Assembly (NCBI GenBank): GCA_035549255.1
Contig: DASZRD010000009.1
Coordinates: 49,071 to 113,070, forward strand
Source of the DNA: Minisyncoccota bacterium
GTDB lineage: Bacteria; Patescibacteriota; Minisyncoccia; Phycocordibacterales; SBAW01
Length of the DNA stretch: 64,000 nt
Reading direction: 5' to 3'
The translations under genes were made by a program, and so were the position numbers. The notes under the pieces are model-generated. The model saw nothing but the letters and a program-made list of their open reading frames with translations, was not told the origin of the DNA and searched no databases. The first letter of the stretch is position 1. The number at the start of each line of letters is the position of its first letter. Positions 50,224 through 53,909 of the stretch are shown here, piece after piece.

Positions 50224-50850
50224 ATGGCAAGCAACCACACCTCGGGTAAAAAGACTTCGCGCACGGCAGCCTTCTGGGCCACCTTCGTGCTGCTCTTTGC
50301 GCTTACCTACAGCTTCCTTGCGGTCGTGGATGCGTTGCCTGATCATTCACAAAACGATATTGCCGCGCACAGCACTGATACTCCTTCGAAGGTGACTTCG
50401 CCGGAGCTGCCGGTGCGCGTTATTGCAAAGGATATCGGCCTCGATGCGGTTGTCGTCAACCCGACGTCGACTAATGTCGACACGCTCGATGATGCGCTGA
50501 CGCAGGGCGCGGTGCGCTACCCGACCTCGGCTCAGCTTGGCGTCGACGGTACGGTGCTCATCTTCGGCCACTCGTCGTATCTTCCGGTCGTGTACCACCA
50601 GTACTACAAGACCTTTGACGGCATTCAGAACCTGAAGCAAGGCCAGACGATCAGCGTCTACTCCGGCACCACGGAATACCGCTATACGGTGACCGGCATC
50701 AGGGTTGCCGATGCTACGCAGGATGTGGTAGAACTGCCTTCAACCGGCAAGCACCTTGTCCTCGTGACCTGCGACTCCTTTGCCACCAAGAGCAACCGCT
50801 TTATCGTGACCGCGGACTTTGTAGGGACATACGCGCTCAGCTCCAAGTAA
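50224..50850 (+). CDS. Sortase-family transpeptidase
   Basis: It has an N-terminal TM helix, a His in 'IFGHSSYL', the TLxTC-like active site 'LVLVTCDSF' and a downstream Arg. Confidence 0.6.
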   Translation: MASNHTSGKKTSRTAAFWATFVLLFALTYSFLAVVDALPDHSQNDIAAHSTDTPSKVTSPELPVRVIAKDIGLDAVVVNPTSTNVDTLDDALTQGAVRYPTSAQLGVDGTVLIFGHSSYLPVVYHQYYKTFDGIQNLKQGQTISVYSGTTEYRYTVTGIRVADATQDVVELPSTGKHLVLVTCDSFATKSNRFIVTADFVGTYALSSK

Positions 50851-50987
50851 CCCTTGGAGGCGGGCGAGTATGTCCTCGCAAGCAATTGCTAGAAGGACCC
50901 CAATTTCCGCAGCGAAAGCTGCGAGGACGAAACTGGAAGTATCAGTACATCGAAATTCAAACCGTCCCATAGGGACAGGAGGAATCA

Positions 50988-51404
50988 ATGCCAACCACAG
51001 ATACCAGAGATCTTCCGTCAAAGGAAGCGCTCAAGGAGGTCGTTAAGACTCTTGTTCAGCAGCGTCTGGATGATGTCGTTGCGGTCTCTACCGAGCGCAA
51101 GGCGGAAATGCTTGCTCGACTCGGCGAAGTCACGCAGCAACGCGATACCGCCGTCTCCGAAATGGAGCGTATCCGTAAGGAGCTCGAGAATCGTCCGACT
51201 CAGGACGCTATCGAGAATCTCTCGGACGACCTTCGGCGGGCGCAGAACCGGTCGGTCGAACTCAGTAACGAGATCGACCAGCTCAAGCGCCAGATTGCCG
51301 AGCTCGAGCAACGCCCTCAGCTGGAACTGGAGCAAGTGATCGAGGAGCTCCAAGTTCCGATCAACGAGATGTTCGATCAAGCGCTGGCGAAGATCAAGGA
51401 GTAA
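50988..51404 (+). CDS. Coiled-coil hypothetical protein (138 aa)
   Basis: AGGAGG sits 7 nt upstream of the start. The protein is heptad-rich in Glu, Arg and Leu. Confidence 0.5.
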   Translation: MPTTDTRDLPSKEALKEVVKTLVQQRLDDVVAVSTERKAEMLARLGEVTQQRDTAVSEMERIRKELENRPTQDAIENLSDDLRRAQNRSVELSNEIDQLKRQIAELEQRPQLELEQVIEELQVPINEMFDQALAKIKE

Positions 51405-51451
51405 TCGCCGGCGAGTCAAACCAACCTCAACCTGAGAAGGAGACTACGGAA

Positions 51452-52330
51452 ATGGAAACTGGCAAGCAGGAACCGGAAGCCGCCGGAGCTGCTTCCCAGC
51501 AGCCGTCGGCCTCCAATTCGGCCGCACATTCTGTGCCGCCGATCACCATCGTCAATAACATACCGCCGCAGCAAGCTGCGCCGGTCGGGATGCCGGTGAA
51601 GAGCGAAGGGTCAAGTACCCTCTTCATCTTCGTTATCATACTGCTAGCGCTGGTGGTTGGGGGAGGAGTGGTATATTTCCTCACCCCGAAGTATCCGGCG
51701 CCGGCAGTTACGGAGACAGCCGCTCCGAGTGAGCTTGTCTCGCCGCCTGCACAGGACGCGGTCAGGACCGTTTCTATCGGTCCCAATGGCATCGCCGCGA
51801 GCGGCTATGACGTCAACGACGTCCAGCAGCTTGCGGGTATCCAGCAAGGGATGAAGTGGGACGCGGCCTGCGGCTGTCAGAAGCCGGTTGCGGCTCCGCC
51901 GCCTCCGGTCGTGGTGCCCAAACCGCATCCGCGTCCGAAGCCGAAGGCAACATGCGACGATGCCTGCAAGGAGTATCAGCGACTCAAGGGTGTGAGCGTC
52001 GACGTTTCCAAGTCTTGCTCGTATGTCCTGGTTCGTAACCCCCAACCCGTTGTCCTGAAGACTGCGTGGGGTAAGGTGGTTACGTCCTGGGCGCAGAGCC
52101 AGATTTCATGGCAGCAGACAAGCCGTGGATGGCTCGGCCAGATCTGTGCACCCGCCAGCGTTTATGCAACGGCTGGTCCGGGCGCCCGGTACTGCGCTGA
52201 GATCGCTCAGAGCGAGATGAACGAAGACGAGCGTTCGCGCCTGATGGCGGGAGGCACATGGGATTCGAACGATCCCTTCTGCCTCAAGTCGCAGGCCGAA
52301 TGCCGCGCTGACAACCTGTCCTGGAAGTAA
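51452..52330 (+). CDS. Hypothetical membrane-anchored Cys-rich protein with a Pro-rich linker
   Basis: GAAGGAG precedes the ATG. It has one TM helix, a PPPPVVVPKPHPRPKPK linker and ~9 Cys in the C-terminal domain. Confidence 0.5.
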   Translation: METGKQEPEAAGAASQQPSASNSAAHSVPPITIVNNIPPQQAAPVGMPVKSEGSSTLFIFVIILLALVVGGGVVYFLTPKYPAPAVTETAAPSELVSPPAQDAVRTVSIGPNGIAASGYDVNDVQQLAGIQQGMKWDAACGCQKPVAAPPPPVVVPKPHPRPKPKATCDDACKEYQRLKGVSVDVSKSCSYVLVRNPQPVVLKTAWGKVVTSWAQSQISWQQTSRGWLGQICAPASVYATAGPGARYCAEIAQSEMNEDERSRLMAGGTWDSNDPFCLKSQAECRADNLSWK

Positions 52331-52454
52331 CTTTTGTTCGGTGGAAGGAGGTACGCCTCCTTCCACCGGGCATTATTTATAGATAGATGTATACAGATAC
52401 GGTAGTGAAATTATTCACTCTCGATATCCGGATATATCCGGAGAGCATTATTAA

Positions 52455-53909
52455 GTGAATATAGTCGTTATTATGAATCGAATTATAAATATTCAGTCAG
52501 TTGGTTTCTTCTTTGTAGCCCTGTTTATCGCAGCAGGTCTATTTCTTGCTGCCTCGGCTCCAGCCCATGCGGCAGGCGGTACTTCTGACGGCGGTTGCTG
52601 TGGTGGCTCTTCGAGCTCGGGCGGCAGCTCAGGCTACACTCCTCCGACCTACGGCAGCAGCGGCGGTTGCTCCTTTAACTGCGGCTATACCCCTCCGCCT
52701 GCTCCTACCTGCTCGCTCTCGATCAATCCTTCGCAGGTTGAGTACGGCGGCGACGTGCAGCTTTCGTGGAGCACCTCCAACGCAAGCTCGGTTTCTCTCT
52801 CCGGCGTCGGCACCGTATCGGCGAACAGCTCGTACACCGATTACAATGTCACCTCCAGCAGGACGTACACCCTCACCGTAGCCAACAGCGTTGGCAATAC
52901 GGTGACCTGCACCAAGTCGGTGACGGTTAAGCAGAAGCCGGCTCCGACCTGCAACCTCTACGCTGACCAGACCTCGGTCAACCCTGGGAATCAAGTCAAG
53001 CTCTCCTGGACCAGCAGCAACGCTAATTACGCGACGCTCTCTTCGGTCGGCTCAATCGCGCTCAATGGCTCTACCTATGTGAATCCGTCGAGCGATACGA
53101 CCTATACGGCGACCTTCTCGACCAACGACAACCGCTCGGTCACCTGCAATACGACCGTACATGTCGTCACCCTTACGTGCCCGGCCAATTACACCGGCAC
53201 GTACCCCAACTGCGTTCCGATCACGTGCCCGGCCGGTTACTCTGGTGCGTATCCCTCCTGCATCCCGCCGTCATACAACGCTCCGTCGTGCAACATCTAC
53301 GTCAACACCAACAACCAGTACAACACGCAGTACGTGCAGTACGGCCAGCCGGTGACGATCACCTGGGCGTCGCAGTACGCGACTTCGGGCTGGATCAACA
53401 ATGGCATCGGCAACGTCGCGCTCTCGGGATCGCAGCTTATCTATCCGACCCAGAACACGACCTACACCGCGACCTTCCTCGGACAGAATAATCAGCAGAT
53501 CACCTGCTCGGTGATCGTCAACATTACGACCCCGCCGATCGTCTATCAGAACCCGGCTCCGTATATCAACCTCTCGGCAGTGCCGTACACCGGCCTTGAT
53601 CTCGGCCCGGTCGGTACCGTACTCTATTGGGGCTTCCTTGCGGCATGGTGCCTCCTTGCTGCATACCTCATTGCGGTCAAACGCGTGCACATGGGCATCG
53701 TCCGCTGGTACCAGAAGGCCCTCTTCGGCATCGAGGGTCATCCCCAGAATGTCTCGCTCGCGGGCCTCTCCTCGGCGGATATGAGCAAGGTCGCAAGCAT
53801 GATCCGCGCAAGCGAGCCGCAGGCTCACGCGCACGCTACTCCGGCCGCGGCGCAGGAGAATGACGCGATCGATCCGTTCATCTTCTCCCAGATCAACCGC
53901 CAGAAGTAA
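52455..53909 (+). CDS. Secreted S/T/N-rich surface protein with three Ig-like repeats and a C-terminal VPYTG + TM + KR segment
   Basis: It has a signal peptide. Three repeats fit 'C.L......V..G..V.LSW.SSNA....LS.VG.....S.TTYT'. Near the C-terminus is 'AVPYTGLDLG', followed by a hydrophobic helix and 'KRVHMG'. Confidence 0.6.
   Translation: MNIVVIMNRIINIQSVGFFFVALFIAAGLFLAASAPAHAAGGTSDGGCCGGSSSSGGSSGYTPPTYGSSGGCSFNCGYTPPPAPTCSLSINPSQVEYGGDVQLSWSTSNASSVSLSGVGTVSANSSYTDYNVTSSRTYTLTVANSVGNTVTCTKSVTVKQKPAPTCNLYADQTSVNPGNQVKLSWTSSNANYATLSSVGSIALNGSTYVNPSSDTTYTATFSTNDNRSVTCNTTVHVVTLTCPANYTGTYPNCVPITCPAGYSGAYPSCIPPSYNAPSCNIYVNTNNQYNTQYVQYGQPVTITWASQYATSGWINNGIGNVALSGSQLIYPTQNTTYTATFLGQNNQQITCSVIVNITTPPIVYQNPAPYINLSAVPYTGLDLGPVGTVLYWGFLAAWCLLAAYLIAVKRVHMGIVRWYQKALFGIEGHPQNVSLAGLSSADMSKVASMIRASEPQAHAHATPAAAQENDAIDPFIFSQINRQK

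Follow-up and report, generated by a model that had tools for sequence, protein, structure and literature searches.

Which surface protein does a sortase of the candidate phyla radiation (CPR) serve, and by what signal does it recognize it? Sortases are widespread in these bacteria, being encoded by more than half of CPR genomes (PMC6744442), and our searches of the literature, Pfam and NCBIfam found no sorting motif or substrate assigned to them. The question is raised by a 64-kb stretch of contig DASZRD010000009.1 (hereafter the window, that is, the whole of the DNA analysed, to which our scans of host DNA for candidate substrates refer). Here, a sortase gene (50224-50850, + strand) is followed, as the third gene downstream, by the gene of a 484-aa surface protein (52455-53909, +) whose C-terminal part holds a VPYTG motif, a membrane helix and basic residues. 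Our answer is that the two products are probably a dedicated sortase and its substrate, recognized through a new motif, xPYTG, in a Paceibacteria (Parcubacteria/CPR) lineage. Direct support was obtained for the identity and fold of the enzyme, for the architecture and conservation of the signal, and for the strict co-location of the two genes.

The sortase

The product of the 50224-50850 gene is, by its sequence, its triad and its predicted fold, a genuine sortase (cysteine transpeptidase) of 208 aa, with a predicted transpeptidase activity; it is already annotated as a sortase in the sequence record. The Pfam model PF04203 (Sortase) matches it with 68.3 bits against a cut-off of 26.6 (E = 6.6e-19). 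The features on which the preliminary description of the locus had based its identification are all present: an N-terminal membrane anchor at about aa 14-36 (50263-50331), His116 in LIFGHSSY (50569-50571), Cys183 in LVLVTCDSF (50770-50772) and Arg192 in SNRFIV (50797-50799). His116, Cys183 (in LVTC, a TLxTC-like strand) and Arg192 are invariant across 120 homologues and align with the catalytic regions of 2kw8, 5go6 and 5hu4. A sequence search of the PDB retrieved sortases only, 2kw8 with E = 7e-9 as well as 5go6 and 5hu4, with the TC and R regions aligned.

AlphaFold run on the single sequence gave an unusable model (predicted local distance difference test, pLDDT, of 41), and a model computed by AlphaFold2 with the 120-sequence alignment was used instead (pLDDT 89.1, predicted template modelling score 0.78). 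Foldseek found 126 PDB matches to this model at E <= 1e-3; among the 50 matches listed all are sortases, and the leading ones belong to class E (5utt, 5go5, 9m4u) and class A (5hu4, 3rcc), with E-values of about 1e-10 yet only 14-26% identity. At the level of structure prediction, the model and these matches together confirm the eight-stranded beta-barrel fold of sortases.

No NCBIfam class model (A-F, GN) reaches its cut-off for this enzyme. The generic sortase_fam model comes closest (33.9 bits against 39.35), and the class models remain far below: GN 30.8 against 158, E 28.9 against 160, D 27-28 against 140-165, C 26.9 against 160 and F 20.2 against 166. We regard the enzyme as representing an unclassified lineage of sortases; judging from the predicted model, it is structurally nearest to classes E and A. 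It has an N-terminal helix only, and the chain stops right after the barrel. The membrane helix carries a near-invariant ladder of phenylalanines, F17/F21/F25/F31, of which positions 17, 21 and 25 lie on one helix face.

The PYTG protein and its C-terminal module

As the preliminary description had it, an S/T/N-rich protein with three Ig-like repeats is encoded three genes downstream of the sortase. By comparison with its orthologues, ATG 52476 (MNRIINIQ...) is probably the true start, rather than GTG 52455. The protein opens with a Sec signal peptide, recognized by inspection as MNRIINIQSVGFFFVALFIAAGLFLAASAPAHA/AG (ending AHA/AG), and continues with a Gly/Ser-rich stretch containing CCGG. 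Three 2-Cys Ig-like repeats of about 75 aa follow (aa 84-158, 164-237 and 277-357; 52704..53525). The repeat hidden Markov model (HMM) detects them with independent E-values of 1e-26 to 1e-31, figures that are partly circular because the profile was built partly from the same three repeats; independent support comes from their alignment with the nine repeats of two related loci (L072 and L073), at 29-47% identity. Against PDB profiles the best match, a weak one, is the Big domain of intimin (E = 0.03). Two CPxxYxGxYPxC repeats occupy aa 241-270 (53175-53264).

Two elements of the ectodomain recur elsewhere. An acidic, Gly-rich stretch with a conserved CCG right after the signal peptide (52575-52640, aa 41-62) and CPxGTxGTYPNC repeats (53175-53264 in the window) are common to the PYTG proteins and to the short-tail paralogues described below, and were seen in loci L030, L051, L052, L066, L067, L068 and L073. 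No Pfam family matches either.

At the C-terminus, V376-P-Y-T-G380 is followed by LDLGP, by a 23-residue membrane helix V386-V408 (VGTVLYWGFLAAWCLLAAYLIAV), which starts 6 residues past Gly380, and by K409-R410 (helix and basic pair at 53610..53684), so that the protein reads ...PYINLSAVPYTG-LDLGP-(23-aa helix)-KR. The PYTG region comprises the stretches LSAVPYTGLDLG and NLSAVPYTGLDLGP. We define as recognition block P369-Y-I-N-L-S-A-V-P-Y-T-G380 (53559..53594), with T379/G380 as the putative cleavage site. The protein does not end with the basic residues: a conserved tail of 74 aa, predicted to be cytoplasmic, leads to the stop (53685..53906). It consists of a juxtamembrane segment ending in LFG, a linker that is variable and rich in His, Ala and Thr, and the terminal motif D470-A-I-D-P-F-I-F-S-Q-I-N-R-Q-K484 (53862-53906; tail-end peptide DAIDPFIFSQINRQK). 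The order of VPYTG, 23-aa helix and KR was thus correctly read in the preliminary description, and so was the non-canonical character of the signal, which is xPYTG instead of LPXTG and keeps 70 residues past KRVHMG.

A six-frame scan of the 64 kb for the motif [LVIAFMYS]-P-x-[TSA]-[GASN] followed by a hydrophobic stretch returned the VPYTG element as the only match in the C-terminal part of a probable gene; the other six regex matches lie far from any C-terminus or in shadow frames. That the window holds exactly one candidate substrate argues for a dedicated enzyme-substrate pair rather than for a multi-substrate housekeeping sortase.

Could the VPYTG-helix-KR arrangement be a chance resemblance? 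The protein is rich in S, T, N and G, and short motifs could arise randomly in such a low-complexity surface protein. Conservation has already refuted this explanation, to which we assign next to no probability. A search with the last 127 residues gave 13 homologues, 41-56% identical to the query across the greater part of its length, and a further match at 71% that is truncated at the C-terminus; in their N-terminal parts these proteins show a loose relationship at best. Owing to the variability of the ectodomains, homologues are found through the C-terminus of the protein only, and this C-terminal module is its best-conserved part. When 1.84 billion representative proteins were searched with a profile of the module, 809 clusters matched at E <= 1e-3, 91 of them at E <= 1e-30. 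In all of the 150 matches listed of these 809, the module stands at the extreme C-terminus, in proteins of 95-679 aa.

We collected 260 distinct signals with the pattern P[YF]TG...G, in which a 48-residue block is conserved. The Tyr of PYTG is present in 100% of them, and Phe, although permitted by the pattern, was never seen; this exclusive Tyr is the only independent result at these positions because the pattern fixed the rest. However, P, Y, T and G are also invariant in independent homologue alignments. In the recognition block, L at -4 reaches 99%, P at -8 93% and V at -1 80%, the residue before PYTG being otherwise I (6%), A (5%), T (3%) or L (3%). The helix is conserved as well (Y 100%, W 98%, AAYL 93-99%), and K/R follow it in 91-94% (K 91%). 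The consensus starts as P-Y-[VI]-[TS]-L-[SA]-[AQS]-V-P-Y-T-G-L-[DE]-L-G-[PF]-x-G-T- and goes on as -x-x-Y-W-x-F-L-x-L-W-C-L-x-A-A-Y-L-I-x-V-K-[RK]-V-[QH]-N. In the tail of the family LFG is conserved, the His/Ala/Thr-rich linker is variable, and the terminal motif is (I/T)-D-x-F-(I/V)-x-x-Q-(I/V)-x-R, or D-x-F-I-x-S-Q-I-N-R, with D, F, Q and R invariant or nearly so. Counted from the Pro of PYTG, the proteins of the family end after a median of 95 residues.

Pfam and NCBIfam, searched at E <= 10, contain no significant match to this module, including among their models for LPXTG anchors and for exosortase-, archaeosortase- and rhombosortase-type CTERM signals. At the same threshold PF00746 and TIGR01167 matched neither the window signal nor three short-tail paralogues. 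Literature searches returned nothing relevant on VPYTG or PYTG in connection with sortases. The end of the tail (I-D-P-F-I-x-S-Q-I-N-R) somewhat resembles the C-terminal peptide of FtsZ (D-I-P-x-F-L-R), but the Pro-Phe spacing differs and we did not adopt the comparison.

Linkage of the two genes across genomes

In about 150 related loci from genomes and metagenomes, the pair sits at one and the same place on the chromosome. Scanning 185,579 species, each represented by one genome, with the module yielded 70 loci, essentially one per genome, and a scan of JGI metagenomes with the core signal gave 577 pattern matches, of which 525 were confirmed and 80 kept. All related loci come from metagenome-assembled genomes of Paceibacterota, Adlerbacteria, Kaiserbacteria, Nomurabacteria or Parcubacteria, some records bearing the unconfirmed label 'Saccharibacteria'. 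In both scans the motif turned up only in this cluster, which is the pattern expected of a dedicated pair. Further VPxTG proteins, which the preliminary description had anticipated, are absent from the rest of the window but are represented elsewhere by hundreds of homologues and in-cluster paralogues.

Of the loci that extend 5 kb or more upstream of the PYTG codon, 68/68 contain a sortase gene, 0.65-5.4 kb from that codon. Every locus with enough DNA has the order pheT, gyrB (+), CARDB protein (-), sortase (+), variable genes, PYTG protein (+), thrS (-) and dnaE (-). In the window, gyrB (46694-48757, +) precedes the cluster, the sortase gene is followed by the genes at 50988-51404 and 51452-52330 and then by the PYTG gene, and a short thrS (53992-55200, -) and dnaE (56144-59137, -) come after it. 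As this whole neighbourhood (pheT, gyrB, thrS, dnaE) is equally syntenic, co-location alone is no proof of a functional link.

Loci in which the order has changed, and those with additional PYTG proteins, add weight beyond co-location. In L046, L052, L058 and L066 the sortase gene has moved away from the CARDB gene and lies some 6-80 bp downstream of the PYTG gene, where a second PYTG gene often follows it; L139 and L151 show the same order. A second PYTG protein is encoded within the cluster in at least 12 loci, with passenger regions that are Gly/Asp-rich, made of CPxGTTGTYPNC repeats or N/T-rich. These second proteins have only 42-66 residues from the Pro to the stop, a canonical or near-canonical length for a sorting signal, as in L023, which ends ...IPYTGVDLGPIGTVVYWSLLVLACLLVAFLSIMALKRGFSPRA (...ALKRGFSPRA), and in L066, which ends ...VKRVQNSIVKYLRVL. 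At the opposite extreme, about 280-320 residues follow PYTG in L071, L072, L145 and L148. Such long cytoplasmic sequences (about 280-320 against about 70 residues) are seen in a more distant branch, in L071, L072 (Parcubacteria bacterium C7867-001), L144, L145 and L148. In the main PYTG family the tail is long and conserved. Since its length varies in this way among PYTG proteins, the constant element is xPYTG with the helix and the basic residues, and the tail is a variable add-on. Taken together, the comparative data strongly suggest that the module is tied to this sortase: at the level of the locus, the putative target stands beside the enzyme across genomes, and the motif appears private to the pair.

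The same data have to be weighed against a quite different reading, in which the PYTG protein stays uncleaved and acts as a type I membrane protein, for example a receptor or an envelope tether. PYTG-LDLG would then be a structural juxtamembrane motif, the helix and the tail would be functional, and the sortase would be a syntenic neighbour with substrates encoded elsewhere. Six observations weigh against a cleaved sorting signal. The curated LPXTG models do not match, and position P4 is V/A/T/I instead of the Leu of LPXTG. The other four also speak for an uncleaved protein. The helix and the 74-aa tail with its terminal motif are far more conserved than in ordinary discarded sorting signals; the 280-320 residues found after PYTG in some homologues would also fit a permanently membrane-anchored receptor; the clade-wide synteny of the entire gyrB-thrS-dnaE region makes co-location weaker evidence than it seems; and a terminator-like hairpin lies between the transcription unit of the sortase and the PYTG gene. 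This very strong hairpin (52335..52372, +), with a 17-bp stem (10 G-C pairs) and then a T-rich run, starts 5 bp past the stop of the gene at 51452-52330, so that the PYTG gene may be transcribed separately from the sortase. However, the signal contains four successive invariant residues that match the sortase P-x-T-G core at the canonical distance from a helix, and paralogues carry the same motif with canonical short tails. The adjacency of sortase and PYTG genes survives rearrangement, the window offers no alternative substrate, and in two large collections the motif was seen only beside this sortase. We consider it unlikely, on this evidence, that the protein is never cleaved, and retain the dedicated pair as the preferred reading.

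Another possibility concerns what the substrate is joined to. The sortase could ligate PYTG proteins to a protein, either the CARDB protein or each other in a head-to-tail or pilus-like manner (for instance via the Gly-rich N-terminal region), and so build a covalent surface fibre. The CARDB protein of the window is a 409-aa surface protein (48819..50048, -). It is anchored in the membrane by its N-terminal part and has a 2-Cys beta domain as well as a C-terminal CARDB-like domain that a low-complexity insert interrupts; its own CARDB match is weak, and both the membrane helix and the CARDB signature are conserved in an alignment of 50 orthologues. In every locus with sufficient flanking sequence its gene lies divergently beside that of the sortase, some clusters have a PYTG protein on either side of the sortase, and all PYTG proteins have the acidic Gly-rich stretch right after the signal peptide, three features that would suit such a fibre. 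They are opposed by the single PYTG protein of the window, by the nearest PDB structures, which are of classes E and A and not of the pilus-type class C, and by the separation of the sortase from the CARDB gene where the order changed (L046, L052, L058 and L066). Protein-protein ligation is therefore a weakly supported possibility, and in our judgment quite an improbable one.

The preliminary description had also joined the 484-aa and 409-aa proteins in one surface family served by the sortase, on the strength of a shared Ig-like unit with LSW..(S/T)NAS signatures. The short string does exist in both, but a shared domain is unsupported: BLASTP gives E = 0.05-0.5, and the repeat HMM, at E <= 10, has no match to the 409-aa protein or to its 53 orthologues. 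We do not regard homology of the unit as demonstrated. The proposed family is likewise unsupported: the 409-aa protein has its only membrane anchor at the N-terminus and no C-terminal signal.

A possible mechanism and the role of the tail

For the dedicated pair that we favour, the sequence of events can be sketched as follows. The N-terminal signal peptide would send the 484-aa protein through Sec, and the C-terminal helix with its stop-transfer residues KR would retain it in the membrane, where the neighbouring membrane-anchored sortase would recognise the invariant block ...L-S-(A/Q)-V-P-Y-T-G-L-(D/E)-L-G. In sortase catalysis, the Cys thiolate attacks the Thr-Gly bond, an acyl-enzyme forms, and the amine of a wall precursor resolves it. 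This established chemistry predicts cleavage at T379/G380: by analogy with all characterised sortases, Cys183 would attack the Thr379-Gly380 bond and the Ig-repeat ectodomain would be passed to an amine acceptor, most likely a peptidoglycan precursor. The fragment G380-K484, that is, the helix and the cytoplasmic tail, would remain in the membrane. Cleavage, its site, the acceptor and any role of the tail are thus steps that we infer.

The much better conservation of the helix and tail than of the ectodomain suggests that they probably have a role of their own. Furthermore, the Phe ladder of the sortase helix, together with the unusually conserved substrate helix, hints at a helix-helix recognition within the membrane. 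Candidate roles would be docking to the ladder F17/F21/F25/F31, and positioning or signalling via D-x-F-I-x-S-Q-I-N-R. A bolder proposal is that the PYTG module is two-in-one, a sortase signal fused to a functional helix and tail unit, which would either target precursor and sortase to a specific site or, after cleavage, persist as a membrane 'C-peptide' reporting to a cytoplasmic partner. We regard this as speculative and rather unlikely. If true, it would amount to a sorting-coupled transmembrane signalling or positioning in the core genome of a large CPR lineage, carried out by an undescribed sortase class and motif.

A precedent for a sortase-cleavage remnant that carries information is found in the SGO_1180 system of Streptococcus gordonii, where the membrane-retained C-peptide left after sortase A processing is sensed (summarised in PMC11326707). 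In that system an ordinary short remnant is sensed by a histidine kinase, whereas the remnant of the PYTG protein would carry a long conserved tail. No kinase is encoded in the PYTG cluster.

Comparison with known systems

The closest parallels are dedicated systems, such as class B (SrtB-IsdC, NPQTN), class D (LPNTA) and class GN, in which a sortase stands beside one, occasionally two, proteins with a variant motif, this motif is private to the pair and no other target is detectable nearby. The proteobacterial 'class GN/marine' sortases covered by the TIGR03784 and TIGR03788 annotations have an adjacent sole target. The present system departs from them by an xPYTG motif with an invariant Tyr, by an enzyme below every class cut-off including that of GN, by a target with a conserved helix and a conserved cytoplasmic tail of about 74 aa, and by its CPR host.

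With class E (LAXTG; Streptomyces SrtE1/E2, Actinomyces oris SrtA) and class A (LPXTG) the enzyme has in common the N-terminal anchor and the His-Cys-Arg triad, and these classes provide the structures closest to its predicted model. Sortase class motifs are listed in PMC5148588, and the P-x-T-G core of the signal is that of class A (PMC5148588). Yet the class E model stays well short of its cut-off, P4 is Val, Ala, Thr or Ile and not Leu, and an invariant Tyr stands at P2, where the known classes have 'X'.

The module also resembles the canonical Gram-positive sorting signal (PF00746, TIGR01167) in its tripartite order and spacing and in the presence of a signal peptide on the same protein. 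The canonical overall length is attained by the short-tail paralogues of related loci and not by the window protein, which differs further by the silence of both HMMs, by its conserved helix sequence and by the 74 additional residues with their terminal motif. Unlike pilus-type (class C) systems, which are marked by two or more pilin substrates with a pilin motif and by a sortase with a lid and a C-terminal membrane helix, the locus has one substrate in the window and a sortase with an N-terminal helix only, for which the class C model gives 26.9 bits against 160. The Pam pilus of CPR bacteria, which is assembled by donor-strand exchange with chaperones (bioRxiv 10.64898/2026.03.03.709456), was rejected as a related system because its assembly does not use a sortase.

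Other genes of the cluster and of the window

Two variable genes separate the sortase from the PYTG gene. The first (50988..51404, +) encodes a 138-aa coiled-coil protein with no membrane helix, for which only weak coiled-coil-type matches were obtained; the second (51452..52330, +) encodes a bitopic membrane protein of 292 aa, whose helix (about aa 58-80) precedes an ectodomain that is rich in Pro and contains Cys. Homologues of the 138-aa protein occur in 3 related loci only and those of the 292-aa protein in 4, in both cases including the same-strain contig L002. In L006 and L007 a single ORF joins a coiled-coil N-terminus to a membrane helix. We rejected these genes as core accessory factors, since iterative profile searches place them in 3-4 of about 150 loci, and consider them lineage-specific.

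The window has a G+C content of about 59% and combines housekeeping genes typical of a small-genome bacterium (pheT, gyrB, thrS, dnaE) with very large surface-protein genes. Its threonyl-tRNA synthetase (53992-55200, -) is only 402 aa long; it lacks the N-terminal TGS and editing region and retains the parts for catalysis and anticodon binding. An assembly artefact was rejected as the cause because the identical 402-aa form recurs in L004; the short form is therefore genuine for the clade. The gap of about 940 bp between thrS and dnaE (55201-56143) holds no convincing gene.

At the left end of the window, a giant ORF (7-19170, +) of at least 6387 aa runs off the window, and its last 1720 aa match the Pfam family 'Bacterial surface protein, Ig-like domain'. 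Further on are two tandem paralogous gene pairs (20220-24733 and 24765-28174, +), each consisting of a large secreted protein and then a small one of 188/189 aa. The large members, a Gly-rich protein of 1314 aa and a protein of 947 aa with a Laminin_G_3 domain, have a common N-terminus (MQGR...TSG..WTVP.DW), and the small members share an N-terminal helix and the C-terminal sequence ...MQTWKFY. The large surface proteins encoded at 7-19170, 20220-24164 and 24765-27608 were rejected as substrates of the sortase, as none has a C-terminal helix or sorting motif.

Two other products bear on the cell wall. A class A beta-lactamase-family protein with an N-terminal helix is encoded at 19184-20158 (+; Pfam Beta-lactamase2, 124 bits), and the gene at 36902-38287 (+) specifies a coiled-coil protein that includes a lytic transglycosylase (SLT) domain. 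Each of the two suggests that this organism turns over its peptidoglycan, and this would fit an acceptor in the wall for the sortase.

Conclusion

In the literature and databases that we queried, we found no description of xPYTG as a signal, of its private pairing with an unclassified lineage of sortases or of its conserved cytoplasmic extension. The locus offers a concrete, testable enzyme-motif pair, xPYTG and a sortase outside the curated classes A-F. If confirmed, this pair would define a new sortase specificity class and provide a new orthogonal motif for sortase-based protein engineering. It would also give a handle for predicting and labelling the surface proteins of CPR bacteria, which are central to their episymbiotic lifestyle. 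Finally, we know of no precedent for a conserved cytoplasmic tail on a sorting signal, and in these bacteria this tail may reveal a coupling of sorting to processes inside the cell.

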